From the NCBI GenBank assembly GCA_040380025.1, contig JBEIJY010000003.1, positions 51,130 through 115,129 on the forward strand: DNA of 64,000 bases. Reading direction: 5' to 3'. The position numbers and the translations under genes were made by a program. Below the pieces are notes generated by a model that was not told the DNA's origin, ran no database searches, and saw nothing but the letters and a program-made list of their open reading frames with translations. Source of the stretch: Bdellovibrionales bacterium. Lineage in GTDB: Bacteria > Bdellovibrionota > UBA1018 > CAIMNF01. Shown piece by piece: positions 6,547 to 59,082 of the stretch. How positions within the stretch are numbered: the first letter of the stretch is position 1; the number at the start of each line of letters is the position of its first letter.

Positions 6547-7425
6547 ATGAAAGTCGCTCTTCGAATCGCTTACCTCGGAAAAAACTACTGCGGCTGGCAA
6601 CGCCAGAGCCGCGAGGTCCTTCCGGCGCGCCTGCCGAGCATCCAGGAGACCATCGAGGGCGCGCTCTCCCGCATTCATGACTCCCGGATCACCATCGTCG
6701 GAAGCGGCCGGACGGACGCCGGCGTGAATGCGCTCGGACAGATCGCGCACTTCTTCTCGCCGAATCCGAAATTCACCCCGAGGATTCTCATGAACGGACT
6801 GAACTCGCTTCTTCCGCAGGACATTCGCGTGCTGGAGGCATTCCGGGTGGAGGACTCCTTTCATGCCCAGCGTTCGGCCGTGAAGAAGCAATACAGTTAT
6901 TACTTCCAGCAGGGGCCTGCGCCGCTCCCCCAGTGGATGGACACTTCTTGGTGGATCCGTCGCACCCTCGATGTGGCCGCGATGGACGAGGCGGTGAGGA
7001 TCCTCCTCGGAGAGCAGGATTTCGCGAGCTTTCAGGCATCGGGGGGGAATCCCGGAAAATCCACCGTGCGGACGATTCTCGAAGCCGGAGTTTCTCTTGT
7101 TCCGATGCCGGAGTTTCCGGGGGCGGATCTCAACGAGCGGGGTTTCGGAATGGTGCGGGTGCGGCTCGTGGGCACCGGTTTTTTGAAGCAGATGGTAAGG
7201 GGAATTGCAGGAACGCTTCTTCAGATCGGCGAGGCTCAACGAAAAGCATCTGAGATGCGCACAGTCCTCGAATCGCGAAGGCGCGAGCTGGTGGGGCCCA
7301 CTGCCCCTGCAAAAGGGCTGACTTTGGAGCGGGTTTGGTATATACCTGACCTTTATGGAAATTCAGATCAAGTTAGAGAATGTATCGGCGATCCAGAAGA
7401 AATTCATCGTCACGATCCCCGCTGA
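6547..7425 (+). CDS. truA: tRNA pseudouridine(38-40) synthase TruA
   Basis: GSGRTDAGVNALGQIAHF catalytic-Asp motif. The C-terminal tail overlaps the tig start by about 70 nt. Confidence 0.8.
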   Translation: MKVALRIAYLGKNYCGWQRQSREVLPARLPSIQETIEGALSRIHDSRITIVGSGRTDAGVNALGQIAHFFSPNPKFTPRILMNGLNSLLPQDIRVLEAFRVEDSFHAQRSAVKKQYSYYFQQGPAPLPQWMDTSWWIRRTLDVAAMDEAVRILLGEQDFASFQASGGNPGKSTVRTILEAGVSLVPMPEFPGADLNERGFGMVRVRLVGTGFLKQMVRGIAGTLLQIGEAQRKASEMRTVLESRRRELVGPTAPAKGLTLERVWYIPDLYGNSDQVRECIGDPEEIHRHDPR

Positions 7426-8686
7426 AAAAGTTTCGAAAACCGTCGAAAAGAAGTTCCTCGAGACCCAAAAGGTCGCGAGTCTGAAGGGCTTTCGCCCCGG
7501 CAAGGTGCCTCTTGCGATGGTGAAGCAGTTTTATGCCGCAGACGTGAAGCAAAAGGCGCTCCAGACGCTCATCAGCGAATCGTATTCGGAAGCAGTCCGC
7601 CAGCATCCGCTTCGCATTGTGGGCGATCCCCAGATCGAGGGCGTTCCCCACGGCCATGACCACGAAGAAGGCCACGAGCACCACCACATTCACATCCACG
7701 AAGGCGAGGCGCTTTCGTTCGCCGCGACCGTCGAAATCGTGCCCGAGATCGAACCGAAAGAGTACAAAGGGCTTTCGCTTCAGAAGGTTTCCGGAGACGT
7801 CACCGATGAAGACGTGGCCGGTGTCCGAAAAAGCCTTCTCGACCGCAAGGCCGAGCTGACTCCCGTCGATCGCGCCGCCGCAATCGGCGACCAGGTGGAC
7901 TTCAAATACGAAGGACGCGTGAAGACCGAAAACGGCTGGGAGTTGAGTCCTGACCTGAGCGGTGATCGTTCGGCCGAGCTCGGATCGGGCCAGCTTCTTC
8001 CGGAGTTCGAAAAAGGAATCGTGGGTGTGAAGGCCGGCGGAACCAAGACCTTCACCATGACCTATGCCAAAGATTACCGCGAACAGAACCTCGCCGGAAA
8101 AGAAGCCGAGTACACGGTGGATGTCCGCGAAGTGAAAGAAAAACGTCTTCCCGAGTGGAATGAAGAGTACGCAAAAGAGTTCGGCTACGAGAGCATCGCG
8201 GACTTCGAAAAGAAAGCACGCGAGCGCCTCGCAAAAACCAAGCGCGAAGAAGCCGAAAACACCCTCCGCAACGGAATGATCACCAAGCTGATCGAAAAGA
8301 ACCCGTTCGAGGTGCCGCAAGCGCTGGTGTACAGCCAGATCCGTGCGCTCGCCGACGACTACTCGAACGAGCTCAAGCGCTACGGGTTCAACGAGCAGAT
8401 GATCCAGTCCGCGGTGGTCAGCCAGCTCGAGGATTTCCGCAAGCGCGCCGAGACCCAGGTTCGCGCGGGTATTCTGCTCGATGCGATCGCGAAAAAAGAA
8501 AAGATCGAGCCGAAGGCCGCCGATTATGAGGCCGAACTCGCCCGGATGGCCGGCAATTTCGGGGTCGAAGTGAAGGTCCTGCAGGACCGGTTCGAATCGA
8601 GCCCGCGCGAGAAGGCGAACTTCGAGTTCCGCGTGCGCGAAGAAATGACCATTCGCTTGATCCTCGACAGCGCCAAGATCAAATAA
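7355..8686 (+). CDS. tig: Trigger factor (ribosome-associated PPIase chaperone) carrying a His-rich insertion
   Basis: Trigger-factor architecture (N-terminal ribosome-binding, central FKBP-like, C-terminal arm). Unusual HGHDHEEGHEHHHIHIHEGE insertion in the N-terminal domain. Confidence 0.8.
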   Translation: MEIQIKLENVSAIQKKFIVTIPAEKVSKTVEKKFLETQKVASLKGFRPGKVPLAMVKQFYAADVKQKALQTLISESYSEAVRQHPLRIVGDPQIEGVPHGHDHEEGHEHHHIHIHEGEALSFAATVEIVPEIEPKEYKGLSLQKVSGDVTDEDVAGVRKSLLDRKAELTPVDRAAAIGDQVDFKYEGRVKTENGWELSPDLSGDRSAELGSGQLLPEFEKGIVGVKAGGTKTFTMTYAKDYREQNLAGKEAEYTVDVREVKEKRLPEWNEEYAKEFGYESIADFEKKARERLAKTKREEAENTLRNGMITKLIEKNPFEVPQALVYSQIRALADDYSNELKRYGFNEQMIQSAVVSQLEDFRKRAETQVRAGILLDAIAKKEKIEPKAADYEAELARMAGNFGVEVKVLQDRFESSPREKANFEFRVREEMTIRLILDSAKIK

Positions 8687-8789
8687 GGCCGGATTCGGCG
8701 GTTCCCACCAGAATCTGACAATCCGATCATTCAATTTCATTGATCCCCCCTGACTCCTTGTGGCAGAACAAGGGCGGGGGGGACCTTGA

Positions 8790-9971
8790 ATGCTCCGACC
8801 GATTGCCGCCAGATTCGGAATTTTCATTTTTTCATTCGTCTTCCTGATTGGCCCGGCAAGGGCCGATGCGGAGCTCGATCGCTTGTACGAGAATGCCAGC
8901 GGAGCCCCCCAACTCGCGATGATCGAGCAGGCGAAGACCTCGATCGACATCGAGATTTACTCAATGAAGGACTCGTCCGTGTTCCAGGCGCTCACGCGCG
9001 CGCTCGATCGCGGCATCACCCTCAGGATCGTCCAGGAACCGAGACCGGTCGCCGACCCGTGCCGGGTGTTTGATCCGCCGACCCAGGCCGACGAGCCGAA
9101 ATGCCGTGAACAGAAGAACTTCGTCGGGCTGGTCCGCTCGAAGGGCGGTCGCTATGAGCCTTTCGAAAAGGCCCTGTGCGGTCCGGGGGACGGTAGCGGA
9201 ATGTGCTATCAGCACGGCAAGATTCTGATCGTCGATGCGAATCTGGTGGCGATCAGTACGGGCAATTTCGATGCCTCGAGCTTTTGCCATCGCGAGCAGG
9301 GGCCATCGAAGTGCAATCGCGACTACACGGTCGTCTCGCGCGATCCCAAGGTGGTGCGCGCGATCCGGTCGGTGTTCGAGGCGGATCTGGCAAAAAAAAC
9401 CACCGATATTCCCTCGATTCTCGCATCTGCGCCCAGGGTCACCGTGAGTCCGCATTCTCTTGCCCCGATTCTTTCGTTTTTGAACTCCGCAAAAAAGACG
9501 ATCCAAATCCAAAATCAGTACCTGAAGAATCCCGATGTCAATGCTGCCTTGATCCGCGCCGCCCAGCGAGGGGTGAGGGTGTTCGTGATGGTGGTGAGTG
9601 CCTGTTTCTTCGGTAGGCCTGATCAGAACGCCGTGGAGCACTGGACCCGCATCTATACCGCATTCGATGCCGCGGGAATCCAGACGCGCGTGTTCAACTC
9701 GAGCATCCAGATCGGCGGGCTTCCCGGCTACTTGCATGCCAAGGCGATTCTGATCGACAGCGCCCGCGCCTGGGTGGGCTCGGTGAACGGCTCGACAACA
9801 AGCCTTGCCGCGAACCGCGAATACGGGATTTTTTCGGACGAGCCCGCGGTGGTGCGGGATCTGGGATCGTTGATGTACACCGACTATGTGGCGCCCGGCG
9901 CGGGCACCTGGCGCGAGAGCCTGCAGTGCAGGCCGGATCACTCCGCATCGAGACTTCCGGAAGAGCCCTGA
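8790..9971 (+). CDS. Secreted phospholipase D-family protein (two HKD motifs)
   Basis: Signal peptide. Two HxKxxxxD motifs (HGKILIVD...STGN and HAKAILID...GSVN). Confidence 0.7.
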   Translation: MLRPIAARFGIFIFSFVFLIGPARADAELDRLYENASGAPQLAMIEQAKTSIDIEIYSMKDSSVFQALTRALDRGITLRIVQEPRPVADPCRVFDPPTQADEPKCREQKNFVGLVRSKGGRYEPFEKALCGPGDGSGMCYQHGKILIVDANLVAISTGNFDASSFCHREQGPSKCNRDYTVVSRDPKVVRAIRSVFEADLAKKTTDIPSILASAPRVTVSPHSLAPILSFLNSAKKTIQIQNQYLKNPDVNAALIRAAQRGVRVFVMVVSACFFGRPDQNAVEHWTRIYTAFDAAGIQTRVFNSSIQIGGLPGYLHAKAILIDSARAWVGSVNGSTTSLAANREYGIFSDEPAVVRDLGSLMYTDYVAPGAGTWRESLQCRPDHSASRLPEEP

Positions 9972-13858: not shown

Positions 13859-14857
13859 TCAGCTCTGGTAGATCCGTTGGATCACCCGCTCCAGCGAGGA
13901 TTCCTGGATTCCGATATCCGCCACTTCGAAATTCGCGAGGAGCTTCTGAAAGTACTCGGTGATGCGAGAGCGGGCGATGGGGATCAGATAGGTGGTGGGG
14001 TCTTCTTCGTCCATGGTCACGGCAGAGGCATCGAGTCCGAGGGTTGTTGATACCTGTGCCGCTTCGGGCGAGCTCAAGAGCTTCACCTTGAGCGTGCATT
14101 CGTCCCGCTCGATCAGGGTCTTCGGGTTTCCATCAAAAATCAGCGAGCCCTCTTTGATCAAAAGAATGCGCTTACAGAGCTCCGAGATGTCATCCATGTT
14201 GTGACTGGTCAGGATGATCGTTGCTCCCTCCTTCTGGTTGTGGGTCCGCAAAAACTCCCGGAGCCGCTTCGAGGCCAGAACATCAAGGCCGATCGTGGGC
14301 TCATCCAAAAAGATCACCTTGGGCAGATGAAGAATCGCGCCGATCACCTCCATCTTCATTCGCTCCCCGAGTGAGAGGCGGCGAATCTGGGTGTTCAGGA
14401 GCTTCTCGACCCCGAGGAGGGCGGTAAGCTCGTCCACCCGCGTACGATACACCTCGCGGGGGATCTGATAGAGCGCGCGCAGAAGATCAAAGGCCTCGAG
14501 TGCGGGAAGATCCCACCAGAGCTGGGCCTTCTGCCCCATGACGATCGAAATCTGACGGCGGAACTCGATCGAGCGTTCGAACGGAGTGAAGCCCAGAACC
14601 CGAGCGTCTCCCGAGGTCGGGGGGATCAGGCCCGATAAGATTTTCAGGAGCGTGGTTTTGCCGGCACCGTTTGCGCCAATCAGACCGGTGAACTCTCCCT
14701 GCTGGACCTCGAACGAGACGCCCTTCAGGGCCTCATGGACTTGGTATTCCGGTCGGAACAGGAGCTTCAGGACTCCTTGAAGGCCCTCTTGTTTTTTGAC
14801 GGACTTGAAGGTGCGCCGGACATCCCGAACAAAGAGCGCAGGCTCATTCGATCTCAT
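13859..14857 (-). CDS. ABC transporter ATP-binding protein
   Basis: Walker A GANGAGKTT, ABC signature LSLGER, Walker B FLDEPT. Confidence 0.85.
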   Translation of the reverse strand: MRSNEPALFVRDVRRTFKSVKKQEGLQGVLKLLFRPEYQVHEALKGVSFEVQQGEFTGLIGANGAGKTTLLKILSGLIPPTSGDARVLGFTPFERSIEFRRQISIVMGQKAQLWWDLPALEAFDLLRALYQIPREVYRTRVDELTALLGVEKLLNTQIRRLSLGERMKMEVIGAILHLPKVIFLDEPTIGLDVLASKRLREFLRTHNQKEGATIILTSHNMDDISELCKRILLIKEGSLIFDGNPKTLIERDECTLKVKLLSSPEAAQVSTTLGLDASAVTMDEEDPTTYLIPIARSRITEYFQKLLANFEVADIGIQESSLERVIQRIYQS

Positions 14858-15845
14858 GAGTCACCCATCGCTTTCCGACCATTTTCTCGGCGGGGAGGGA
14901 CTTCGGCAGAACGGCATTGTACCGGAGCTTGATCGGTACCGATTCGCCCAAGCCTTCGGGTTTGAAGAGGGTCCCTGCAAAGCTTTCTTCGACCGGGAAC
15001 ACGGTGATCAGCGCAGGGCTCTCGGGAGGCGCGTTCTTTCTTTGGGTCAAAATCGAATAAATCAGAATCGCCTTGTTCTTTCCGTGAGGGTTGTCTTTCA
15101 AAAAAGGAACGATGTCCGTCCGGATCTCGATGGTCTCGTCCTCGGCCGTGATTTGCTCGATCAGACGCCGCGGTTTCAGTGAGGCAAAGTCAAACTTCAA
15201 CAGCTCCCGCGGTGCCCGATGCGCGGACTTGCGAGCAAGATCCGACATCTTCTTCATGCCCTCATTCGAATCCCGAAAGGCGATCCTTCCGGCAAGAAGG
15301 CTCAAGTTCAAAAGAAGAGTGCCTTTTTTGGGCATTCCCCCGAGCAGTCCTTCGGACAAACCGAAGCCCGCCTCGATTTCATGCTTCCCATAGCGGGCGC
15401 GTTTGTAGCCGTACGGGGTTCTGACGGTGCTGAAGAGGTAACCGTAGGTGTGGGTGAGGCCCGCATGCCCGGTGGTGTAAGTTTCGTCAAAGGGGACCTT
15501 CAATGTCCGGTTGAAGAACTGAAGCAGATTCGCCGGAACGGTTTTGGTCCCGGTTGCGAGATTGCTCTCGTCGATGTTGCGGCTCAGGCCCCAGAGCGAG
15601 AGGAGTCCGGGCGTTTTTTGATCCCGCTCGAGCTGGCGCAAAAACCCGGGGATTGATTTCTCGAGGGTGGCGCGAATCGTTTTGGGATCCTCGATGCCTT
15701 CGAGGGAGCGGGCCGTTCCGGCCCAAGGGCAGTCCTCGCGCGTTTCGAGAGCCTCGGGGTTCGGGCACTGGGCCCGGCCAGGGGCTCCGAAGGCGAGGCC
15801 TGCGAGCCCCAGAAGTGCCTGAAGGAGTGTAATTTTTGCGCGCAT
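14844..15845 (-). CDS. Secreted hypothetical protein
   Basis: Start set at MRAKITLLQALLGLAGLAFGAPGRAQ (signal peptide). No recognizable catalytic motif. Confidence 0.5.
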   Translation of the reverse strand: MRAKITLLQALLGLAGLAFGAPGRAQCPNPEALETREDCPWAGTARSLEGIEDPKTIRATLEKSIPGFLRQLERDQKTPGLLSLWGLSRNIDESNLATGTKTVPANLLQFFNRTLKVPFDETYTTGHAGLTHTYGYLFSTVRTPYGYKRARYGKHEIEAGFGLSEGLLGGMPKKGTLLLNLSLLAGRIAFRDSNEGMKKMSDLARKSAHRAPRELLKFDFASLKPRRLIEQITAEDETIEIRTDIVPFLKDNPHGKNKAILIYSILTQRKNAPPESPALITVFPVEESFAGTLFKPEGLGESVPIKLRYNAVLPKSLPAEKMVGKRWVTHEIE

Positions 15846-15875
15846 GGGTGTATCGTTTAGCCGAAAGACCCCCAA

Positions 15876-16511
15876 ATGAAAAGTCAAGACTCTGTCCCCT
15901 ACTATGAGCACCACGCCCTTCGCCTTGCGGAGCAGGATCTTCGAGTGAAGTCTCCGGGAGAACTCGTGCCGTTCCTCGAGCTTCTGGTCCCGAACGGACG
16001 GGTGCTCGATCTCGGATGCGGCTCGGGGTTCGACTTGCAGTGGATCCGGCGCTCCGGTCGGGAAGGGGTGGGAATCGATGCCGCACCCTCGCGGGCCCGG
16101 ATTGCGCGCGAACAAAACCCGGGGGCCGAGATTCTCGAAAAAAACTTTCTGTTTTACTCCCCGAAAGAGTCCGAGTGGGACGGAGTCTGGGCGAATCGAT
16201 CGCTTCATCATGATTCCCCCGAGGCGGTCCAACGGGTGGTGGCAGGCGTATTCCGGGGACTCAGACCGGGAGGGATTTTCGGAGTGGTCGTGTACGAGGG
16301 ATCAGGCGGGTTTCAGGATCGCGAGGGCGACTACTTGGGACCGTCCCGGTCTTTGCACCCGTGGAGAGAAAAGGCGCTTTGCAGTCTCTTGGAGCAAACC
16401 GGATTTCAGATTCTGAAGGTCGGACGAAAGCCCGCGGCTCCCGAAGAAGGGCATGCGCTCCCCGGGCTATTGGTTCTGGCAAAAAAAATCGGGTCTAGGG
16501 TTTCTGGCTGA
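15876..16511 (+). CDS. Class I SAM-dependent methyltransferase
   Basis: VLDLGCGSG motif I and downstream Rossmann-like motifs. Confidence 0.7.
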   Translation: MKSQDSVPYYEHHALRLAEQDLRVKSPGELVPFLELLVPNGRVLDLGCGSGFDLQWIRRSGREGVGIDAAPSRARIAREQNPGAEILEKNFLFYSPKESEWDGVWANRSLHHDSPEAVQRVVAGVFRGLRPGGIFGVVVYEGSGGFQDREGDYLGPSRSLHPWREKALCSLLEQTGFQILKVGRKPAAPEEGHALPGLLVLAKKIGSRVSG

Positions 16512-17920: not shown

Positions 17921-18550
17921 ATGAAGTTGCTGAGAGCCATCGTCCTGATTCTGCCTTTTTTTTGGGTGCCATCCTCTCGAGCATTCGAGGCGGGGATTTT
18001 AGGGGGAGTCAATTCCTTCGGGCCGGATTTGAAAGCCGGTCCGGCGTCCCCGGGGTTCACGTTCACGGCAGTACCCAGAACCGCATCGGGATTCGGGGCT
18101 TTTGTGAAGTTCCCCCTGGTTTCTGTGTTTGATCTTGAGTTGGATTTCATTCGTGCGGACAAAAAGATCGTGCAGACCGCAAGTTCGAGCTCTTTTTCGA
18201 ACGTCACGACGATCGAGATGTCCTCTTGGATGGTTCCGCTCCTGCTTCGAGTGAATGTGGTTCCCGGGGGCTTTTTAAGCCTTGCCGCCGGTGGGTACTA
18301 CGAGTGGGCGTCGGGTCGGGAGTACAAGGTCAACGGGGTCAGCACCGATTACGCCGGTTCCGGGTTCAATCACCGTGACATCGGGGTGTTGGGATCCCTC
18401 CGGCTTCGTTTTCCGGTCTTTTTCGGAGCCCATGCGATTCTGGATGGCCGCTATTTGATGGGGCTTCAGGAACAAGCAACGGACACGACCCAGTTCACGA
18501 TGAAGAGCCGGCACTTGCAGGCTTTTTTCGGGGTTTCGTTCGGTTCCTGA
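17921..18550 (+). CDS. Outer-membrane beta-barrel protein (OmpA/OmpW-like small barrel)
   Basis: Signal peptide MKLLRAIVLILPFFWVPSSRA. Alternating hydrophobic strands and a C-terminal aromatic (FGVSFGS). Confidence 0.6.
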   Translation: MKLLRAIVLILPFFWVPSSRAFEAGILGGVNSFGPDLKAGPASPGFTFTAVPRTASGFGAFVKFPLVSVFDLELDFIRADKKIVQTASSSSFSNVTTIEMSSWMVPLLLRVNVVPGGFLSLAAGGYYEWASGREYKVNGVSTDYAGSGFNHRDIGVLGSLRLRFPVFFGAHAILDGRYLMGLQEQATDTTQFTMKSRHLQAFFGVSFGS

Positions 18551-19010
18551 GAACGTCGCCGCAATCGGCACAAATCCCGGTGAACTCCACGAAGTGACGG
18601 ACTTCGCGGAACCCCATGTTCTTCACGGTCTCAAGGAGCTTCATCCAGTCCTTCCCGCCGCAGGCTTCGAGGACGGCCATCTTTCCGCATTTGCGGCAGA
18701 GCAAATGATGGTGATGGGTCTCGGCCGAGTCGAGTTCGAAGCGAACGGTTCCGTCGGCAAGGGGGGTTCGGACGACGATTTGGTTTTCTTCAAAAAAAAG
18801 AAGGGTCCGATAAACCGTGACCCGGTCGATGCGGCCGGTCTTCGAAGCCAGTTCGACAATCTGATCGACGGTGAGCGGCGAGTCCGCATCGCGGAGAATC
18901 TTCGTGATGCGCTCACGGCCCGGGGTCCATTTTCCGCCCCGTTTTTTCACCGCCTCACGAATGGCGCTGATCTTGGTGGGTTCTTCAGACTTGCACATCC
19001 GGGACTTCAT
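18495..19010 (-). CDS. fur: Fur-family metal-responsive transcriptional regulator (Fur/Zur/PerR)
   Basis: HHHHLLCRKCG and C-terminal CADCG metal-site motifs with a winged-helix N-terminus. Co-directional with, and downstream of, the paralog array and the GH-like gene. Confidence 0.75.
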   Translation of the reverse strand: MKSRMCKSEEPTKISAIREAVKKRGGKWTPGRERITKILRDADSPLTVDQIVELASKTGRIDRVTVYRTLLFFEENQIVVRTPLADGTVRFELDSAETHHHHLLCRKCGKMAVLEACGGKDWMKLLETVKNMGFREVRHFVEFTGICADCGDVLRNRTKPRKKPASAGSSS

Positions 19011-19011
19011 A

Positions 19012-20103
19012 TCACGGGCTGGGCAAATCGTCGATGAAGCGGGCAAGAAGCAGGGTCTCGAGCGCCACGATGTGGGTCACGGGCGTGAACTGCCCGGGGC
19101 TTTCGGGGTTCACCCAGCGCAGCGGGTACCAGCCGCATTTGTTCTTGGGTGATCGGATCACCAGCTCTGCTTGCCGGTCGACGAACGAGCGAAGCTCCTC
19201 GAGGCGCGGGTCGTTCTGTTCGGCGAAGGCGCGCACCAAAGGATAGAGCGACTTCATGAAGATTCCCTTGAAGGTCACGCCGTCGACGCCGCAGGGTTTT
19301 TTCCCGCCCTCGGACTCGCAGTGCCGCTCGGCGAACGCTCCGCGGTCGTTGAGGTAATAGTTGCGCGAGGCCTGGAAGAGCGACCAGGCGCGGTCGAGGT
19401 TTCCGAGCCGGGTGAAGACCTCGATGTAGAGTCCCTGGTTGTATGTCCAGTAGTCGCCGATTGCATTGCACTTCGCATCGAGTCCATCGTCGATGAGCCC
19501 CTCGGGGTTCCGGACGATGGCGGAGTTTTCGATCCAATGGACGATCTTGAGCGCGCGTTCGCGGTACACCGGATCGCCCGTCAGTTCGAAGAGCCGAAGG
19601 TTCAGGACGGCATAAATGCCGTTTGTGACGGAATTCTGGTACTTGTTCTCGGGCTTCCAAACGAGACTTCCGCCGCAGGTCGAAACCCAGGCGCGCTCGT
19701 GAATGTGTTTATAGAGCGCAAGGGAGCGCTTCAGGTATTTCTTTTTGGTCCGGCCCGAGGCCTCATAGGCATGAAGCCAGGTGAGCGCCCACCAGCCCTC
19801 GTCATCGAAGATGCCGTTCACGTAGTTCAAGATCGGCCGGAAGCTCAAAAAAAAGTAAGTCTGATCAAGACTCCCGATCAGCTCCCGGTCGAACCGCAAA
19901 AGGCCGTCGATGTTGTGTGATTGGGTCCACCAAGTCGAGCGAGGCCAATCCCGAAGCAAAAACCGTCGCGATTCCTGATGGGTCTTACCGGCCTCTTCGA
20001 TCGCGGCATCAAGCTCTGCTCTTTCGATCCCTCGTGCGGGGGGAGCTCCCGCAATGCTCATGAAGACTGCGACAAGAAGGGTCGAAAGAGTGAGACGGTT
20101 CAT
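19012..20103 (-). CDS. Secreted six-hairpin (alpha/alpha)6 glycoside-hydrolase-like protein (GH76-like)
   Basis: Signal peptide and W-rich motifs (DDEGWWALTW, NSVTNGIY) reminiscent of GH76-type hydrolases. Family assignment is uncertain. Confidence 0.45.
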   Translation of the reverse strand: MNRLTLSTLLVAVFMSIAGAPPARGIERAELDAAIEEAGKTHQESRRFLLRDWPRSTWWTQSHNIDGLLRFDRELIGSLDQTYFFLSFRPILNYVNGIFDDEGWWALTWLHAYEASGRTKKKYLKRSLALYKHIHERAWVSTCGGSLVWKPENKYQNSVTNGIYAVLNLRLFELTGDPVYRERALKIVHWIENSAIVRNPEGLIDDGLDAKCNAIGDYWTYNQGLYIEVFTRLGNLDRAWSLFQASRNYYLNDRGAFAERHCESEGGKKPCGVDGVTFKGIFMKSLYPLVRAFAEQNDPRLEELRSFVDRQAELVIRSPKNKCGWYPLRWVNPESPGQFTPVTHIVALETLLLARFIDDLPSP

Positions 20104-20137: not shown

Positions 20138-20689
20138 TCAATACTTCGGTCCTAGGTCGAGCGGCCGGGTTTCCTGCCGGAGCTCTTCGAGCTCCCGCTT
20201 GCGAAGATCCTGTTCCTGCGGGCTCGCCTCGATGGCGGCTTGCGCGCGTTCCGTGATCTCGGCGGTGATCTCCGCACGGCGTACCTCGCACTCGTGCAGG
20301 GACCGGAACTCCCGGTTCTGATCGTAGGTGTAGTTCGGAATCGCGAACTCCGCAACCGGCTTCGGAAGCGCCCCGACCACCAGGACCGCATATTGCGAGC
20401 CGTAGTTCTGATGGAGCGCAGGTCCGAGATCGACCTTGATGCGTTCCACTCGGTCTTCCTCGCGACGGGCGCGATCGCACCGGATCGCCGCATGCGCTTG
20501 CTCGCACACATTCTTCAGGTCTGACAGGTTCGATTCGGTTTTCGAGATGCGGATCAGAACATACGATCCGCCGGTCTTCAGGTACAGGCGGTCGAACCAG
20601 CCCTCGCGGAACTCGCAGGCTCCTTGCGCCTGTGCGGCCGAAGCCGAAATGAAAAGTGCTGCCAACAATGCCGATCCGTACTTGCTCAT
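20138..20689 (-). CDS. Small secreted four-cysteine paralog A (type-2 subfamily)
   Basis: Signal peptide. Conserved C-x-F, LKNVCEQ...C, ECE and AQxAI motifs. RBS GGAGGAGAGG. Own AT-rich promoter element. Confidence 0.7.
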   Translation of the reverse strand: MSKYGSALLAALFISASAAQAQGACEFREGWFDRLYLKTGGSYVLIRISKTESNLSDLKNVCEQAHAAIRCDRARREEDRVERIKVDLGPALHQNYGSQYAVLVVGALPKPVAEFAIPNYTYDQNREFRSLHECEVRRAEITAEITERAQAAIEASPQEQDLRKRELEELRQETRPLDLGPKY

Positions 20690-20722
20690 GGGTTCCTCTC
20701 CTCCTTCAGAAAAGAAAGGAAC

Positions 20723-20788
20723 ATCTTGCAGAGGCTGAAAACAAGTGTCAATTATAATTTATATAATATTAGAATAAAAACTAATGGG
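20723..20788 (-). promoter_or_regulatory. Conserved AT-rich element plus TTGACA (-35) and N17 then CAAGAT promoter of paralog A
   Basis: 43-nt element tgtcaattataatttatataatattagaataaaaactaatggg is repeated nearly identically at 21877-21920 and 23036-23078. TTGACA sits at its gene-proximal end. Confidence 0.6.
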
Positions 20789-20796
20789 AGTTGCGG

Positions 20797-21252
20797 TCAG
20801 CGCAGACGCGTGCCCCATTTGCGGTCTTCGATTTGTCTTTGTTCTTCGGGACGCAGAGCGATCGCATCTTGGGCCCGTCCCGTGGCACGGATGGAAAACC
20901 ACGAGCGGTGCGTTTCGCACTCCTCGAAGGAATCGAACATGCGATTGAAACCGACCGAAGGCACGGGACCCGCGAATTGGAGGATCCATTCCGGAAGTTC
21001 CCCGACATAAAAGAGCGTGAACTCCGAGCCGGGATTCAAAACGCAATGACTGGCGCGCAGGGTTTCGTCACAGAGGTTCTTCAGGTCGCCGATGTTCTGC
21101 GGGGTTCTCGAAACCCGGATCGGAAGCGTACTGCCGTTCCCCGCGTTCAGGCGGACCGAGTAAAACGGACCCTGCGAAAAAAAACAAGCCTCCTCTGCAT
21201 TCGCAGAAAAGGCTTGCATCAATATCATTGAAACGAAAGCAAAACGAAGCAT
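20797..21252 (-). CDS. Small secreted four-cysteine paralog B (type-2 subfamily)
   Basis: Start at MLRFAF with an AAGGGGGG RBS. Shares the PEWIxQF and EECE motifs with paralog D. Co-transcribed downstream of paralog C. Confidence 0.65.
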   Translation of the reverse strand: MLRFAFVSMILMQAFSANAEEACFFSQGPFYSVRLNAGNGSTLPIRVSRTPQNIGDLKNLCDETLRASHCVLNPGSEFTLFYVGELPEWILQFAGPVPSVGFNRMFDSFEECETHRSWFSIRATGRAQDAIALRPEEQRQIEDRKWGTRLR

Positions 21253-21293
21253 GTTATCCCCCCTTTTCTTCAGATCAAGCGACACCGGAAGAA

Positions 21294-21821
21294 TCAGATT
21301 TTTCCGGGAGTCAGGCGGCGCCCCTGTTCGCGGAGCTGTTGATCGTCGCGAGCATTGGTCGAGCGAGCCTCGATCGCCTTCTGGGCGTTCTCGACCGCTT
21401 GAATGGCAACGTCGGCCCGGTGGCTTTCGCAGGCTTGCACCGAGGCGTAAGACTTACCCGCATAGCTCGGCGCGAATTGCGCGATCCACTGGTTCCGCGG
21501 ATGGAATTCATATTCGAGGGTGGCGAAGTTCTTTCCGAGATCGACATAGGTACTCGGGCCGAGATCGGAATCAATGCGCACGCTCTCGCCGGTGTAGCGG
21601 ACATGCTCGATGCACAGGACCGCCTTGAAGGTCTCATCGCAGACGGTCTTGAGTGTGTTCAGGTTCTCGTCGGTTTGTGCCACGCGAATCCCGACGTACT
21701 GGGAATCGCTCGACTGAATGTAAGAGTGGCCGAAAACCCCCGTCGAAAAATAGCAGTTCGCCTCTGCCGAAGCTCCTGCCATCATCAATGCCACTGCCAA
21801 TCCTGAAACTTGTTTGAACAT
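21294..21821 (-). CDS. Small secreted four-cysteine paralog C (type-1 subfamily)
   Basis: Start at MFKQVSGLAV with a GAGGAGAGG RBS. CYFSTG, CDETFKAVLC and ACESHR motifs. Closest to paralog E. Confidence 0.7.
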   Translation of the reverse strand: MFKQVSGLAVALMMAGASAEANCYFSTGVFGHSYIQSSDSQYVGIRVAQTDENLNTLKTVCDETFKAVLCIEHVRYTGESVRIDSDLGPSTYVDLGKNFATLEYEFHPRNQWIAQFAPSYAGKSYASVQACESHRADVAIQAVENAQKAIEARSTNARDDQQLREQGRRLTPGKI

Positions 21822-21852
21822 GATACCTCTCCTCATTTTTGAAACGACGCAG

Positions 21853-21920
21853 AATGCTTGCACGTCATGACTGGCGCGTCAATTATTATTTATAGTAAAT
21901 AAGAATAAAAACTAATGGCG
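21853..21920 (-). promoter_or_regulatory. Conserved AT-rich element plus TTGACG (-35) promoter of the C-B unit
   Basis: Second copy of the 43-nt AT-rich element, immediately upstream of paralog C. Confidence 0.55.
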
Positions 21921-21960
21921 ATCGGTCGCACGGGCTTGCGCGGGCCTTCGGCGGGGCTTA

Positions 21961-22425
21961 TTACCAGGGGCGCGCTTGATACACCGATTCCCGGATGCGT
22001 TTTTGCTCTTCGGGATTGGCCGCGATGGCGGCATGGGCGCGTTCGGTCGCAAGAATGGCGAATTCGGAGCGCGCGATCTCGCACTCTTTCTGGGAGTTCA
22101 GAAGCTGGTTCCAGCCATAGCCGAAGATCGGGTTGGTATATTGCGCGATCCATTCCGGAACAGCGTGGATGAACAACAGGGTGACTCCTGATTCTTTTGT
22201 GGGAAGGCACTCCGCGGCCTCGAGGCTCGTATTGCACACCTCTCTCAGGATCGAGCGGTTGTTATTGCTTCGGGTGACCTGGATCACGAGGAACTTCCCG
22301 TGTCCCGAGTTCAAATGAAGCGAATCGAATTGTCCGCTCGAAAAAGTGCAGCTGTCTTTGGCGTGGGCGGCCGAGGCGGTCATCGCCAACAAAATCGTAA
22401 GAACGGTTCTAGTCATTGCCAACAT
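21961..22425 (-). CDS. Small secreted four-cysteine paralog D (type-2 subfamily)
   Basis: Signal peptide, PEWIAQY and KECEIAR motifs. GGAGG RBS. Co-transcribed downstream of paralog E. Confidence 0.65.
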   Translation of the reverse strand: MLAMTRTVLTILLAMTASAAHAKDSCTFSSGQFDSLHLNSGHGKFLVIQVTRSNNNRSILREVCNTSLEAAECLPTKESGVTLLFIHAVPEWIAQYTNPIFGYGWNQLLNSQKECEIARSEFAILATERAHAAIAANPEEQKRIRESVYQARPW

Positions 22426-22455
22426 GATTTTCATCCTCCGAAAGATTCCCCGATT

Positions 22456-22980
22456 CTACCATTTGCCCGGAGTATAGAGATCGCGCCGGTCGGGTTGATT
22501 CTCGAGAGGGGACCCGCGCGCGGTGGATTCATTGTAGCGGATCGCCTTTTGTGCGATTTCGACGGTCCCGATCGCGATTCGATCCCGCTGAGCCAAGCAT
22601 GCTTCGTAAGACGCGTATTTCTTGCCGGACCAGTCATTCGGCACGAATTGCTGGATCCACTCGGGCAGATTGCTCACGCCAAGGGTCACTTCCACCAGTC
22701 CGAAGTTGGTGTATTCCTTGATGCCGAATTCCGAGGGATGACTCACGACCTGATCATAAGTACGGGTGGTGCCCTCGCACCGGACGGCCTTGTAGGTCTC
22801 GTTGCAAACGGTTTGCAAAAGGTTCTTGTTTTCGACGGTCGGTGTGATCCGGATCAGATCGTACTGGTCTTCGCTCGCGTGGATGTACTCGCCGAGGTAA
22901 CCCCCGGAGAAGTAACACTGCGCCCCGGCCGAAGAACCTGCCGCCATCATCAATGCGATTGCCGAAAATTTCTTGAACAT
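22456..22980 (-). CDS. Small secreted four-cysteine paralog E (type-1 subfamily)
   Basis: Start at MFKKFSAIAL with a GGAGAGG RBS. CYFSGG, CNETYKAVRC and ACLAQR motifs. Ends ...TPGKW (paralog C ends TPGKI). Confidence 0.7.
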   Translation of the reverse strand: MFKKFSAIALMMAAGSSAGAQCYFSGGYLGEYIHASEDQYDLIRITPTVENKNLLQTVCNETYKAVRCEGTTRTYDQVVSHPSEFGIKEYTNFGLVEVTLGVSNLPEWIQQFVPNDWSGKKYASYEACLAQRDRIAIGTVEIAQKAIRYNESTARGSPLENQPDRRDLYTPGKW

Positions 22981-23012
22981 GAACTGCCTCTCCTCTTCGT
23001 TTCGAAGTCGGC

Positions 23013-23078
23013 GCATCTTCGCACGGGCAAGGTGATGTGTCAATTATTTTTTATATGAAGTTAGAATAAAAACTGATG
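23013..23078 (-). promoter_or_regulatory. Conserved AT-rich element plus TTGACA (-35) and N17 then GAAGAT promoter of the E-D unit
   Basis: Third copy of the 43-nt element. Confidence 0.6.
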
Positions 23079-23089
23079 AGGGGGTCGCA

Positions 23090-23575
23090 TCAGTTCGGAC
23101 GGGTGCGGGCGGCGCGCGCCTGGCGGATCGCCTCGCGCTGGGAGGCCATCACATCGATGATCTCGAGCGCTTCGTAACGAAGGTCGTTCTCGAAAATGAA
23201 GCGGTAGAAGTTCTCGATGTCCGGATGGTGGCGGAAGTTCTTGAGCGATCCGGAGTTGGTGTCGGTTCCCGCAGTCGCGGCCGCCATGGCAAGGCCTGCG
23301 GCCGAGATTCCGGGAGCGGCGGCGCCTTCTTCTTCTTCGTCCTCATCCGAGGACGCGGTGCCGGTCACGAGTTCGGCTTTCAGCTCGATGGTGTCGGATT
23401 TCTTGTCTTTGCCCGCGCCTTTTTTCTCGATCGCGATTTTCACTTTGGGTTCGGGCTTCTTGGTCGACTTGGCCACCGGCTTTGCGGAAGGCTTCGGAGC
23501 GGCCTTGGCGGGTTTCGCGGGAACGGGTTTTTTCGCGTTTGTTTTTTTAGCGGGTTCTTTTTTCGATTTTGCCAT
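23090..23575 (-). CDS. Lysine/Ala/Pro-rich histone-H1-like small protein with acidic linker and conserved C-terminal domain
   Basis: MAKSKKEPAKKTNAKKPVPAKPAKAAPKPSAKPVAK... tail, then an SDEDEEEE run, then NFRHHPDIENFYRFIFENDLRYEALEII. Start trimmed to MAKSKK. Confidence 0.5.
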   Translation of the reverse strand: MAKSKKEPAKKTNAKKPVPAKPAKAAPKPSAKPVAKSTKKPEPKVKIAIEKKGAGKDKKSDTIELKAELVTGTASSDEDEEEEGAAAPGISAAGLAMAAATAGTDTNSGSLKNFRHHPDIENFYRFIFENDLRYEALEIIDVMASQREAIRQARAARTRPN

Positions 23576-23603: not shown

Positions 23604-24989
23604 TTACAGTTTCGCCTCGGATTTGTCCAAAATTCCGTAGCGGTGAAGTTTGTTGTACAGGGTCTTGATCGTGATCCCGAGCGAATGCGCCGCACGGGTC
23701 TTGTTGCCTTCGAAGTGGCCGAGACAACGCAAAATATGGATTTTTTCGAGTTCCTCGAGGGGCATTTCGACCGGGGGCGGGCCGGTCAGCTCTCTCGACG
23801 CACTCTGGGCCGGACCCCGGATCGATCCAGGCAGATCCGCCGGTTCGATCCGTCCGTCTCCCGAAAGAATCCGGATCCGCTCGATCGCGTTCTGAAGCTC
23901 CCGGATGTTTCCGGGCCAGGGGTGGTTCTTCAGGAGCTCGAGCGCCTCGCTCGAAATCCGGGCGAGCATACCCGAAGAAAAATGCTCGATCAGAAGGGGA
24001 ATGTCGTCTTTCCGGTCGCGCAATGCCGGGGATTTGAGCGTGATGGTGTTCAGACGGTAAAAGAGATCCTCACGGAACCGGCTGTTCTGAATCTCGGTCT
24101 CGAGGTCGCGATTGGTGGCGCTCACCACCCGCACATCGACGCGGATCGGCTCCTTGCCGCCTACGCGATAGAATTCGCCTTCTTGCAAAAATCGCAGGAT
24201 CTTCGACTGGAGGGCGAGGGCCATTTCGCCGATTTCGTCCAAAAACAGGGTTCCGCGATGGGCCTGCTCGACCAGTCCTTTTTTGGTGCCTGTGGCGCCG
24301 GTGAACGAGCCTTTTTCGTGTCCGAACAGCTCGCTTTCGAGCAGGGATTCGGTGATCGCGCCGCAATTGATTGCCACAAAGGGAAGCTCGCTTCTCGGGC
24401 TCTGTGCGTGGATCCGTCGCGCGATCAGCTCTTTGCCGGTTCCGCTCTCGCCCAAAATGAGCACGGATGCCGAGGTCGGAGCCACGCGGTCGATCAGGTT
24501 CAGAATCTTGCCGAGTTTTTCGCTCCGGCCGATCAGGGGAACGGTCTGGGCTGCTGCGCGGGAGGGTTTCCTGGGCTCGCGGACCTTGCCACCCAGGGTG
24601 AGACCGGGAAGCGCGGGAGCAAGAAGGCGTCCGAGTTCGGTTGCCGCAAGCTCAATCAAAATCGTCTCGCCCGTGAGCCATTTGCCTTCCGGACGGTATG
24701 CGAACAGCACTCCGGTGATCCGGTTCTCAAAAATGCAAGGGACGATGAAAATCCGGTTCAGCGGCTCGATCACCGACTGGCGCAGACGCACGGACTGATC
24801 GAGGGTGCGGGGGTCGAACGGGGGGAAGCCCGGGGTCGCCGCGAATTGATCCTTGGGGAGCTCGGTTGCCGCATTTGCCCGTGCGATCGCGAACTTCGCG
24901 AACGAGAGTTCGCGATTCAGGAAGTCCAGGCTTCCGTCGAACTCGTCATTCAGTTTTCGGATCAGGCTCAGCGCCGACAAGGGTTCCAT
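23604..24989 (-). CDS. Sigma-54-dependent transcriptional activator with an N-terminal GAF-like sensor domain
   Basis: AAA+ sigma-54 activation domain (GESGTGKE Walker A, GAFTGA-like ESELFGHEKGSFTGA), C-terminal Fis-type HTH, and no receiver Asp domain. Start trimmed to MEPLSALS. Confidence 0.8.
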   Translation of the reverse strand: MEPLSALSLIRKLNDEFDGSLDFLNRELSFAKFAIARANAATELPKDQFAATPGFPPFDPRTLDQSVRLRQSVIEPLNRIFIVPCIFENRITGVLFAYRPEGKWLTGETILIELAATELGRLLAPALPGLTLGGKVREPRKPSRAAAQTVPLIGRSEKLGKILNLIDRVAPTSASVLILGESGTGKELIARRIHAQSPRSELPFVAINCGAITESLLESELFGHEKGSFTGATGTKKGLVEQAHRGTLFLDEIGEMALALQSKILRFLQEGEFYRVGGKEPIRVDVRVVSATNRDLETEIQNSRFREDLFYRLNTITLKSPALRDRKDDIPLLIEHFSSGMLARISSEALELLKNHPWPGNIRELQNAIERIRILSGDGRIEPADLPGSIRGPAQSASRELTGPPPVEMPLEELEKIHILRCLGHFEGNKTRAAHSLGITIKTLYNKLHRYGILDKSEAKL

Positions 24990-25029
24990 CGCGACGGTGG
25001 ATTCTAGCAGTACTGTGTAAAAATTGCAA

Positions 25030-25455
25030 TTAAAAACTGATATAAAAAGTAAGATTTTCAGTAAGGGGGCGGACCACGGTGTACAGCGCAAGCACTGCCA
25101 GCCCGGCCCAGGCAAGGCCTCGCGCCCGGTTCCACGAGGGAATCGGAAGTCGCCCGGTCGCCGCAAGCGCCGAGACGACGGGCATTCCCGAAAACAAGGG
25201 GAGCGAGAGCAGGTTCTGCCGGAACGCCTCTTGCCACTCTCCGAAAAACAAATGCACAAAGGCATGGGTCATGCCGCAAAACGAGCACTTCATTCCGGTC
25301 CACATGCGCAGGGGGCAAACCGGCGGAAGCGCATCCAGGATCGAAAACGCCTGCTCCCGCCCGAGCAGATGCAGGCTCGCTCCCGAAGCAACAAACAGCA
25401 GCAGCAGGAGTCTCCCGGACCAAACAAGCAGAGAAGACTTCGAAGAAGAACTCAA
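25030..25455 (-). CDS. DUF2752-like small membrane protein
   Basis: CPLRMWTGMKCSFCGMTHAF, i.e. a CPxxxxxGxxCxxCGxT(H/R)A motif, plus TM segments. The 3' end runs into an AT-rich tract. Confidence 0.5.
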   Translation of the reverse strand: MSSSSKSSLLVWSGRLLLLLFVASGASLHLLGREQAFSILDALPPVCPLRMWTGMKCSFCGMTHAFVHLFFGEWQEAFRQNLLSLPLFSGMPVVSALAATGRLPIPSWNRARGLAWAGLAVLALYTVVRPLTENLTFYISF

Positions 25456-47278: not shown

Positions 47279-47773
47279 ATGATCGAGGCATTCCGGCCCG
47301 TGAGGGTGTTTCTTCCGTTCGGATTCGTGTTTGTGGTCCTGTACTTCGGTCTCGGGCGACCCGAATCGCTTCTTGCCGGGGCGGTGTTCGCGATTGTGGC
47401 GGGAACCGGAATCCGCTGGCCGATTCCGATCGCGCGCGCCCTCCCGATGCTCCTCCTTTTGACCCTTCTGCTGGGCATGGGCTTTCTTCCCGCATCGGGG
47501 ACCTCGACGGTGGTTCTTCATGCGGCGAGCCTTTTGCTTTCGTTCCGGATTCTTCTTTCGGTCCTCGCCCGGGTTCGTTCTCCGGACCAACGGCATGTCC
47601 GTTCGCTCGTGCCGTTTGCGATGGGGCTCGGGGCGCAGTTCTTCATTTCGCTTTTGTTGCTGATCGCTTCTTTGCGCGGAATCGACCCGCGGGTTCTGCT
47701 GATCGTGCGGATTCTCGACCTGAAGCTTCTTGCGGTCGGGCTCGTCGCGCATTTGTTGAGATCCGCGCGATGA
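47279..47773 (+). CDS. Hypothetical membrane protein
   Basis: Four to five hydrophobic helices. 4-nt overlap (ATGA) with the next gene. Confidence 0.45.
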   Translation: MIEAFRPVRVFLPFGFVFVVLYFGLGRPESLLAGAVFAIVAGTGIRWPIPIARALPMLLLLTLLLGMGFLPASGTSTVVLHAASLLLSFRILLSVLARVRSPDQRHVRSLVPFAMGLGAQFFISLLLLIASLRGIDPRVLLIVRILDLKLLAVGLVAHLLRSAR

Positions 47774-59001: not shown

Positions 59002-59002
59002 T

Positions 59003-59082
59003 GGATATCAAAAGCGATAAAATTTTGACTAAAACCAACTTTTATTGTTGCGTATTGGTGTGTTATTTATTAAACTGACCAT
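59003..59082 (+). promoter_or_regulatory. 80-bp AT-rich intergenic region (putative promoter) upstream of the XRE regulator
   Basis: ...aaaattttgactaaaaccaacttttattgttgcgtattggtgtgttatttattaaactgacc... Strongly AT-rich in a GC-rich genome and contains a TTGACT hexamer. Confidence 0.4.

Follow-up and report, generated by a model that had tools for sequence, protein, structure and literature searches.

Conserved AT-rich dyad elements at the putative promoters of a rare secreted-protein family in a Bdellovibrionales bacterium

Genes and AT-rich elements of the window

The locus lies in a 64-kb stretch of DNA, referred to here as the window, and all of its genes are encoded on the minus strand. 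Five of them, A to E, are paralogues with a protein identity of 27-48%. Gene E (P0003; 22456..22980) encodes a long-type protein of 174 aa with a signal peptide and four cysteines, and is followed after 21 nt by the short-type gene D (P0006; 21961..22434). Gene C (P0001; 21294..21821; long type, 175 aa) is likewise followed, after 41 nt, by the short-type gene B (P0007; 20797..21252). Downstream of gene A (P0002; 20138..20689; long type, 183 aa) by 34 nt is a GH76-family gene (19012..20103; PF03663, E=1e-33), which is probably co-transcribed with A, no terminator being called in the gap. Its stop codon abuts a Fur-family gene (18495..19010; PF01475, E=4e-20), with which the A unit probably ends. 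An earlier sequence-only reading had described a co-directional cluster of A, a GH-like gene and fur, and this cluster is real. The protein encoded just upstream of the E-D unit, F, is rich in Lys, Ala and Pro, has a histone-H1-like basic N-terminus and belongs to no known family. The secreted four-cysteine family itself is rare (12 cluster representatives in 1.84 billion); its predicted structure is confident and has no solved structural relative, and the modelled fold is apparently new.

Three AT-rich elements of 42-44 nt with a pairwise identity of 81-88% are present on the minus strand, each upstream of the first gene of a unit: element 3 ahead of E-D (23037..23080), element 2 ahead of C-B (21876..21919) and element 1 ahead of A-GH76-fur (20745..20788). 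Genes B and D have no element of their own. These are the near-identical elements that had been noticed ahead of A, C and E, with coordinates that were right to within 1-3 nt. A repeat search of the window returned a single family of three 42-nt copies (20745-20786, 21876-21917 and 23037-23078), each with an identity of 86% to the reference copy, and a degenerate 36-nt pattern with ≤3 mismatches found exactly these three sites in 64 kb, as against none in 100 shuffles. The three elements are also the 40-nt segments richest in AT (10-17.5% GC) in a window of 58.6% GC.

We built a profile HMM from six copies of the element and searched about 105 kb, made up of the window and the homologous loci described below. 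Sites were found upstream of family genes only (E=4e-11 to 2e-9; 1.5e-10 for element 3, 4e-11 for element 2 and 1.3e-9 for element 1), and the next match had E>1. Rfam covariance models at the gathering score gave no matches in the window, a tRNA search of the window gave none, and RNA folds of the leader regions were not better than those of shuffles. A literature search with the sequence string of the element returned irrelevant matches only.

Conservation of the element in other organisms

The element also precedes distant homologues, with a protein identity of 22-35%, on five metagenome contigs that represent at least three further organisms (loci L005/L006, L011, L012, L008 and L009). The presence of the same stretch ahead of distant relatives in other uncultured bacteria argues that it is a specific control site, and since the gene contexts of these loci are unrelated, the element travels with the gene. 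A first metagenome scan with an alignment of the long type found no relatives. About four lineages were sampled in all; the DNA of the closest relatives, P0004 (E-like) and P0005 (C-like; JGI 3300059473), and that of P0010, P0011, P0013 and P0014, lay outside the element comparison. One two-domain homologue, at L007, is preceded by TTGACT-17-TAGGCT without the element, indicating that the family can be expressed without it.

Among eight sequences, 26 columns of the element were invariant. Its identity was 71-88%, compared with 28-55% for the proteins and 37-62% for the spacer and 5' flank, and the flanks of the element were at background identity between loci. A sliding comparison of the three units of the window gave a similar picture: conservation peaked at the element (mean pairwise DNA identity 0.83), compared with 0.3-0.68 for coding DNA and 0.41 for the spacer between the -35 and -10 hexamers. 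As judged from these alignments, strong purifying selection acts on the element.

Given that the units arose by tandem duplication, one may ask if the elements are a generic dispersed repeat, the end of a mobile element, or the product of a recent duplication or gene conversion without function. However, a search for a REP- or MITE-like repeat in the 64 kb gave three copies only, all at the same place upstream of the paralogues, rather than many context-free copies. The DNA around the elements has diverged to background, which excludes a recent duplication, and gene conversion alone is excluded because the element is kept with homologues of 22-35% identity in other organisms. No true matches to the element, searched as AGTTTTTATTCT-N16-TAATTGAC in the genome collection, were found in 185,579 species genomes, viral contigs or plasmids. 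Four matches in the genome collection were due to chance and confined to AT-rich genomes; the one inspected, L001, was an unrelated terminator region. With respect to a mobile origin, both the pattern scan of viral contigs and a tblastn search of plasmids were empty. We therefore give this explanation almost no weight.

Core promoter and upstream dyad

Read in the direction of the genes, each element of the window closes with a putative -35 hexamer: TTGACA in element 3 (23038-23043), TTGACG in element 2 (21877-21882) and TTGACA in element 1 (20746-20751). One or other of these two hexamers is also found at L005, L008, L009, L011 and L012. Exactly 17 nt further on are the putative -10 hexamers GAAGAT for E-D (23015..23020), AAGCAT for C-B (21854..21859) and CAAGAT for A (20723..20728), the first two of which are preceded by TGC. 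A spacing of 17 to 18 nt had been proposed; the 17 nt held for all three copies of the window, and 18 nt was not seen there. The three hexamers retain A2 and T6, lack the first T, and match TATAAT at only 3 of 6 positions, so that a consensus promoter scanner made no call at any of them. Other promoters of the window fit TTGnnn-17-TAnnnT, as detected in a promoter scan, namely TTGCAA-17-TAGAAT ahead of a sigma-54 activator gene (25029-25001, minus strand) and TGGACA-17-TAAATT.

A -10-like hexamer occurs 16-18 nt past TTGAC in every copy of the element, although such hexamers are abundant in AT-rich DNA. The relatives have TAAGAT at 17 nt (L008), TAAAAT at 18 nt (L012) and TAGAAC at 18 nt (L005 and L011), and also TATAGG/TAGGCT at 16/18 nt. 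Those of L008 and L012 are better than the hexamers of the window and back the position assigned in the E-D promoter. Within one lineage the hexamer changes from TAGAAC (L005, L011) to TAAAAT (L012). Downstream of the -10, the ribosome-binding site GAGGAGAGG is invariant 5-7 nt ahead of ATG in all three units (22987..22995 for E, 21826..21834 for C and 20695..20703 for A), in line with what had been read from the letters. The retention of TTGAC(A/G) and the better -10 hexamers in other organisms also support the proposed promoter, with its TTGACA -35, its -10 hexamer and the UP-like AT-rich tract ahead of them, and the proposal that the units share a regulatory input. Transcription would start 6-8 nt past the -10; since (T/A)ATAAT lies directly ahead of TGAC, transcription may also begin at a second point within the element.

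Several other types of site were considered and set aside. A sigma-54 promoter (GG-N10-GC, as TGGCAC-N5-TTGCW) had no match at ≤2 mismatches in the three upstream regions. Judged by eye, the plus strand has TAGAAT-like hexamers but no -35 for an antisense promoter, TTGAC being found on one side of the dyad only. An Lrp site was also judged by eye (YAG-N9-CTR, against YAG-N8-CTR here), and IHF sites, CtrA-like sites and integron attC sites were dropped by eye for poor fit.

Upstream of the -35, the element has two-fold symmetry of the form 13-N9-13 over 35 bp, with the arms ATTAnTTTTTATA and TATAAAAAnTAAT separated by 9 nt. In element 3 the distal arm is ATCAGTTTTTATT (23065-23077) and the proximal arm TATAAAAAATAAT (23043-23055); the corresponding arms are at 21904-21916 and 21882-21894 in element 2, and at 20773-20785 and 20751-20763 in element 1. 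The first T of the -35 is shared with the proximal arm. The arm centres are near -63 and -41, 22 bp or two helical turns apart. This axis was the best in five of six copies and ranked second in the sixth (element 1). Between the arms, 12 of 13 positions match in L008 and L009 (p=2e-4 versus shuffles) and 9-10 of 13 in the copies of the window, where the dyad is degenerate (p=0.18 for element 1), and an AT-only sequence raises the symmetry expected by chance. A half-site scan of the window gave 8 matches compared to 0.42 expected; six of these are the paired arms of the three elements, always 22 nt from start to start, and in L008 and L009 both arms are perfect half-sites. The seven central nucleotides, on the other hand, are variable (AATATTA, TATTTAC, AACTTCA, GATACTC, CACTTGC and GATGGGG), and are even GC-rich in some copies (GATGGGG and CACTTGC; L005 and L009).

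The distal box is conserved at -69 to -55 and carries a T5 run at -64 to -60. In element 3, L008, L009, L011 and L012 the proximal arm has an A6 run at -44 to -39, and elements 1 and 2 have AAATTA and AAATAA at the same position. The element thus has an A-tract where the proximal subsite of an UP element would lie (-46 to -38, with key adenines at -41 to -43), but no distal subsite (AT-rich with a T-tract, about -57 to -47), a stretch that is here the variable centre. The freedom of this centre to be GC-rich, where the distal subsite of E. coli would be, argues for bipartite specific recognition.

We propose that each unit is driven by a sigma-70-type promoter whose upstream half is the element, and in which a consensus -35, a 17-nt unconserved spacer and a weak -10 (xAAGAT or AAGCAT) would be joined to the 35-bp symmetric site and its nine unconstrained central nucleotides. 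The weakness of the -10 suggests that the promoter depends on the dyad. The latter would be the operator at which a dedicated activator, itself symmetric (dimeric), brings in RNA polymerase, while the proximal A-tract may also contact the alpha C-terminal domain (alpha-CTD). We put the probability of this reading as a whole at roughly 0.6. Its first component, a sigma-70-type promoter that is specific to the family and has a functional dyad upstream, is likely; its second, binding of the dyad by a dedicated regulator and not by alpha alone, falls a little short of an even chance. The best reading of the dyad is a pair of options, the operator of a dimeric regulator or a split UP element.

The split UP element would need no extra factor: both AT arms would be contacted by two alpha-CTDs, the proximal one at about -41 and the distal one at about -63, a helical turn farther upstream than usual, giving a strong constitutive promoter. 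In E. coli rrnB P1, alpha-CTD binds to sites at -38 to -59. The elements resemble promoters of this type in that an AT-rich tract adjoins a consensus -35 in all copies, with the A-tract at -44 to -39 beside it, and in the weak -10 that is typical of UP-dependent promoters. The polarity, with a distal T-tract and a proximal A-tract, fits the full UP consensus that Estrem is said to have derived in 1998 (nnAAAWWTWTTTTnnnAAAnnn). The adenines at -41 to -43 are the critical positions of the proximal subsite in rrnB P1, according to PMC4390567, which cites Estrem 1999 and Ross 2001. Across the loci, the element has no conserved regulator gene as a neighbour, as would be expected if alpha sufficed. 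Unlike in rrnB P1, however, the distal box lies one helical turn out and the canonical distal subsite (-57 to -47) coincides with the very stretch that is free of constraint and, in L005 and L009, rich in GC. Moreover, the boxes are inverted repeats of 13 nt, and with invariant positions outside the tracts (C-56, T-55 and ATTA) the conserved stretches of 13-16 bp exceed what alpha-CTD contact needs. Nothing similar is present at any other promoter in the 105 kb, the element being limited to one gene family. Shifting the subsites one turn upstream would also be expected to weaken the effect, which Meng et al. reportedly found in 2001 to be greatly reduced in E. coli. We regard the split UP element as a real but clearly less probable alternative.

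A further explanation divides the element in two, with the distal box forming the U-tract of an intrinsic terminator for F, D and B (a hairpin, then TTTTTATT) and the proximal part alone serving as the promoter. The stop codons of these genes do lie 8-45 nt before the elements, and a hairpin of 8-9 bp (AACUGAUG...CAUCAGUU) before element 3 ends in a T-run (z=-2.1). However, elements 1 and 2 are preceded by weak hairpins in a different register (z=-1.1 and -0.2), and a scan for terminators called none at the elements. At L008 the upstream gene is divergent and there is nothing to terminate, although the half-site in the distal box is perfect. A terminator would also fail to account for the inverted symmetry of the two arms, and we consider it highly improbable.

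Candidate regulators and significance

The elements had been read as possible Fur- or Zur-type boxes of a metal-responsive, autoregulated regulon controlled by the Fur-like protein of the A unit. In favour of this, the Fur-family gene is genuine and probably transcribed from element 1, the elements are AT-rich with ATAAT/ATTAT runs as Fur-family boxes are, and the proximal arm reaches the -35, a position from which a protein could repress transcription. We compared the elements with six consensus boxes (the E. coli Fur 19-mer, the B. subtilis Fur, PerR and Zur 7-1-7 boxes, and two Zur boxes), using shuffles of the same 45 nt as controls. The best matches, 11-12 of 19 and 7-10 of 14, were equal to those of shuffles, and 35 of 36 tests were at shuffle level at a threshold of p<0.04 (next lowest p=0.043). 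The one good match, of element 1 to the PerR 7-1-7 box (12 of 14, p=0.018), was not conserved in the other copies. The 13-N9-13 symmetry over 35 bp also differs from that of 19-bp (9-1-9) or 15-bp (7-1-7) boxes, and the site lies mostly upstream of the -35 and not over the -35 and -10. The element is kept at L005, L008 and L009, with no Fur homologue within the sequence compared (tblastn of L005-L010, about 41 kb), and the divergent Fur-like protein of the window reaches no NCBIfam equivalog cut-off. The reading as a Fur-family operator is therefore not supported, and we consider it very unlikely.

Negative control can also be envisaged, where the AT-rich dyad nucleates a nucleoid-associated or histone-like protein, or a dimeric repressor, and the units are off until induced. 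The elements are the most AT-rich islands in the window, the proximal arm overlaps the -35, and the histone-H1-like protein F would be a candidate. However, composition-driven binding would not be expected to preserve 26 positions exactly and at a constant spacing to the -35, no homologue of F was found in the other loci, and the weakness of the -10 suggests that activation is required. A silencer is thus improbable, albeit less so than a Fur operator, and activation would be the likelier mode of control.

The proposed dimeric activator finds parallels among class I and class II promoters. CRP- and FNR-like proteins bind dyad operators at -41.5 and -61.5. The elements share with such promoters a two-fold symmetric site whose half-sites, centred near -41 and -63, are presented on one face of the helix, an overlap with the -35 and a poor -10. 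They differ in their length of 35 bp, the AT-only arms of 13 bp and the 9-bp gap, and in matching no consensus among those tested, which were the Fur-family boxes. In LytTR-regulated bacteriocin and pheromone promoters, conserved repeats precede paralogous genes for small secreted peptides. These promoters have family-specific, highly conserved bipartite sites of 35-45 bp just upstream of the -35, with half-sites about 21-22 bp apart, and serve several small secreted-protein genes with weak core promoters, all of which resembles the situation here; their repeats, however, are direct with G/C-containing cores, whereas those of the element are inverted and AT-only. No gene for a LytTR or other regulator was seen near the element.

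A similar AT-rich tract had been noted upstream of the sigma-54 activator gene. The tract exists (25001-25069) and shares an exact 11-mer, ATCAGTTTTTA, with element 3; it also contains a half-site-like sequence with one mismatch, CTTACTTTTTATA (25041..25053, minus strand), that may possibly link this promoter to the elements. It is not a full copy of the element, as judged from the HMM search, and the "GAF" label given to the activator could not be upheld, no GAF domain being detected at E≤0.01.

Taken together, these comparisons identify the element as a new motif of a known type of promoter control. More tentatively, an undescribed transcription factor, dedicated to the orphan secreted family and co-evolved with it, could have the dyad as its operator, so that gene and promoter form a self-contained cassette, and the sigma-54 activator may share the circuit. 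If so, the control site of the cassette would have remained nearly unchanged while the protein drifted to about 30% identity, moving between unrelated contexts.

The locus also carries a warning, that AT-rich tracts beside a fur gene should not be taken as Fur boxes unless symmetry and consensus fit. The cis-element is better conserved than the genes it would control (26 invariant positions, against a protein identity of 22-35%), and appears to be a clean natural footprint of a specific, so far unnamed regulatory input in uncultured bacteria. The 35-bp site can serve as a precise bait in pull-down or DAP-seq experiments and as a model with which to look for more of the regulon, and the promoter is at present the only handle on when and why this rare orphan family is made.

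A conserved element ahead of a rare gene family

The three AT-rich tracts upstream of genes A, C and E formed one repeat family of 42-nt copies at 20745-20786 (element 1), 21876-21917 (element 2) and 23037-23078 (element 3). A degenerate 36-nt pattern occurred only at these sites in the 64 kb and in none of 100 shuffles, confirming the elements noticed in the sequence-only reading. They are the most AT-rich stretches of the window (58.6% GC). Read in the gene direction, each comprises CATYAGTTTTTATTCT, seven variable nucleotides and TATAAAWWATAATTGAC(A/G), with CAAGAT, AAGCAT or GAAGAT exactly 17 nt downstream, and GAGGAGAGG is invariant ahead of all three ATGs. Alignment of the units showed that conservation peaks at the element (mean pairwise identity 0.83, vs 0.41 in the -35/-10 spacer and 0.3-0.68 in coding DNA). 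Since the element is the identity peak along the units, the alignment indicates that its similarity is maintained, and is not a remnant of recent duplication.

Genes A to E encode five paralogues (27-48% identity) that all carry a signal peptide and share four invariant cysteines, and no Pfam or NCBIfam model matched them. The family is extremely rare. Among 5.8 billion proteins, a word-indexed search matched three window proteins and two others; among 1.84 billion cluster representatives, an exhaustive profile search found 12.

We compared the DNA of distant homologues on metagenome contigs (22-35% identity to the window proteins by tblastn): L008, L009, and a single lineage represented by the close variants L005/L006, L011 and L012. 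Two further loci contributed a two-domain variant (L007) and a 5'-truncated copy (L010), and about four lineages were sampled in all. The promoter region reads CATTAATTTTTATACTGATACTCTATAAAAAATAATTGACAC, 17 nt and TAAGAT in L008; GATTAATTTTTATACTCACTTGCTATAAAAAATAATTGACGG in L009, followed by TATAGG after 16 nt or TAGGCT after 18 nt; and CAGTATTTTTTATACTGATGGGGTATAAAAA(A)TAATTGACAA, 18 nt and TAGAAC in L005 and L011, with TAAAAT in place of TAGAAC in L012. An eight-sequence alignment contained 26 invariant columns within the element, whereas the spacer and leader had essentially none; pairwise identity was 71-88% for the element, 28-55% for the proteins and 37-62% for the spacer and 5' flank. 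A profile HMM of the element, run on the window and about 41 kb of loci, matched only these sites (E=4e-11 to 2e-9; next-best matches E>1). The neighbouring genes elsewhere (acetyl-CoA-carboxylase-like, amidohydrolase, DUF2490, haem-oxygenase-like, cyclase) are unrelated to those in the window, and tblastn found no homologues of the window's Fur, F, GH76 or sigma-54 activator proteins encoded in the other loci. These comparisons indicate that the element travels with its gene.

Copy count and context in the window and loci excluded a generic repeat, an alternative that the sequence-only reading had named, and background-level flanks together with conservation across organisms excluded recent duplication. 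No true matches that would point to a mobile origin were found in 185,579 species genomes, viral contigs or plasmids. In L007 (1770-1830), the gene for the two-domain protein P0008 has a plain TTGACT-17-TAGGCT promoter and no AT-rich dyad, so not every family member has the element. The A-tract is A5 in L005 and L006 (L005 213-229) vs A6 in L011 (37-54) and L012 (542-559), a difference between close variants that shifts the arm spacing by 1 bp and may reflect either true homopolymer variation or misassembly.

Fit to a sigma-70-type promoter

The elements and their downstream hexamers fit a sigma-70-type promoter, a reading supported by the invariance of TTGAC(A/G), a TAnnnT-like hexamer at a constant 16-18 nt, the change from TAGAAC to TAAAAT inside one lineage and the agreement of other window promoters (TTGCAA-17-TAGAAT and TGGACA-17-TAAATT). 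TTGACA would be the -35 and xAAGAT a weak -10 that retains A at position 2 and T at position 6 and has lost the first T. A consensus scanner called no promoter at the three elements, because the -10 matches at only 3/6 positions. No sigma-54 -24/-12 motif was present upstream, no Rfam family matched, and the leaders folded no better than shuffles. The promoter proposal of the sequence-only reading is thus supported, and the evidence from other organisms extends it. Could the tracts instead be terminator tails of the upstream genes? This is plausible only before element 3, where a hairpin was found (z=-2.1); the signal is weak before elements 1 and 2, and in L008 the divergent orientation of the upstream gene makes the explanation impossible.

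The dyad and its candidate binding partners

The upstream part is a dyad of two 13-nt arms: the proximal one, TATAAAAAATAAT, stops at the first T of TTGAC and is the reverse complement of the distal one, ATTAATTTTTATA. The two arms match at 12/13 positions in L008 and L009 (p=2e-4 vs shuffles) and at 9-10/13 in the window copies, and the dyad axis is constant across copies. Scanning the window with the half-site ATTAnTTTTTATA (<=2 mismatches) gave eight matches vs 0.42 expected. Six are the arms of the three elements, in inverted pairs whose starts are always 22 nt apart; the others lie at 25041-25053, in the sigma-54 activator promoter, and at 41830, within a gene or at its end. Both arms are perfect in L008 and L009, with one mismatch in L011 and zero in L012.

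With TTGACA set at -35 to -30, the arm centres fall near -63 and -41 and the A-tract of the proximal arm covers -44 to -39. Positions -54 to -48, the seven bases at the centre, show no constraint and can be rich in GC. The main rival explanation is a split UP element that needs no factor. In the proximal UP subsite of rrnB P1, adenines -41 to -43 matter most (PMC4390567), and the A-tract of the element spans these positions. However, the variable centre occupies the region where a distal subsite would be expected, and the conserved distal box is displaced upstream by one more turn. Some invariant bases of the conserved boxes fall outside the tracts (C-56, T-55, ATTA), and nothing similar was found ahead of other genes in the window and loci DNA. 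Because of the variable centre, these external bases and the restriction to this family, we tentatively favour a dedicated two-fold symmetric DNA-binding protein, which would activate a promoter with a poor -10, assisted by alpha-CTD contacts at the A-tract.

The proposal that the elements are Fur-family boxes was not supported. Six elements were scored against the 19-mer of E. coli Fur, the 7-1-7 boxes of B. subtilis Fur, PerR and Zur, and two Zur consensus sequences; the best matches equalled those obtained after shuffling the same 45 nt. The sole exception, element 1 against PerR (12/14, p=0.018), was absent from the other copies. In addition, a Fur-family box would have a different symmetry and length, the site lies mostly upstream of the -35, and the other loci lack a Fur gene.

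Gene organization around the elements

Every gene between 18.5 and 25.3 kb lies on the minus strand, in the transcription order sigma-54 activator (23604-24989), F (23090-23575), element 3, E (22456-22980, long type), D (21961-22434, short type), element 2, C (21294-21821, long type), B (20797-21252, short type), element 1, A (20138-20689, long type), a GH76-family gene (19012-20103) and a Fur-family gene (18495-19010; PF01475, E=4e-20). B and D have no element of their own and trail C by 41 nt and E by 21 nt; the units are therefore E-D, C-B and A-GH76-fur. The secreted GH76-family (alpha-mannanase-like) gene and fur, separated by 1 nt, are an unusual operon partnership. Since fur abuts the GH76 stop and a terminator scan called none in the A/GH76/fur gaps, element 1 probably drives fur, which is co-expression and not evidence of the autoregulation suggested earlier. 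The Fur-like protein is a true family member that falls below every equivalog cut-off and may have an unusual specificity.

The sigma-54 activator contains Sigma54_activat, AAA lid and HTH_8 domains; a domain search detected no GAF domain, which the sequence-only reading had assigned to it. Its promoter (24987-25053, minus) is TTGCAA-17-TAGAAT with a TG extension, and the ATG (24989-24987) lies 11 nt past the -10, which would leave the mRNA with almost no leader. Upstream are two tandem T5 boxes, CTTACTTTTTATA then TCAGTTTTTAAT. The likeness of this tract to the elements held in part: CTTACTTTTTATA, at 25041-25053, is one mismatch from the half-site, but is a single, unpaired arm.

F (161 aa) combines a Lys/Ala/Pro-rich, histone-H1-like N-terminus with an acidic run (SSDEDEEEEG) and a C-terminal domain; it lies outside all known families (no Pfam, NCBIfam or PDB match) and may bind AT-rich DNA. 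Its gene is served by a separate TGGACA-17-TAAATT promoter and stops 8 nt ahead of element 3. The 5' end of B (21184-21217, minus) carries a perfect 15-bp hairpin and U8 (GCAAGCCUUUUCUGC-GAAU-GCAGAGGAGGCUUGU-UUUUUUUU), 35 nt past the ATG in signal-peptide codons (MFE -31.9 kcal/mol, z=-3.2), which looks like an intrinsic terminator within the coding region; paralogue D has nothing similar. Elsewhere, an AT-rich island (58991-59535, plus) with TTGACT after an AT-rich tract precedes a small gene from 59084 whose sequence looks like that of an XRE-type helix-turn-helix regulator. Pfam gave nothing at 1e-5 for several long ORFs of 460-860 aa (975-2819, 4311-6545, 7373-8950, 14844-16232 and 47518-50091); some of them may lie on the wrong strand, and otherwise the genome is rich in uncharacterised proteins.

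Taken together, the sequence comparisons identify the element as a promoter/operator motif that is new and family-specific and belongs to a known general type, and its conservation relative to the coding sequence is striking.
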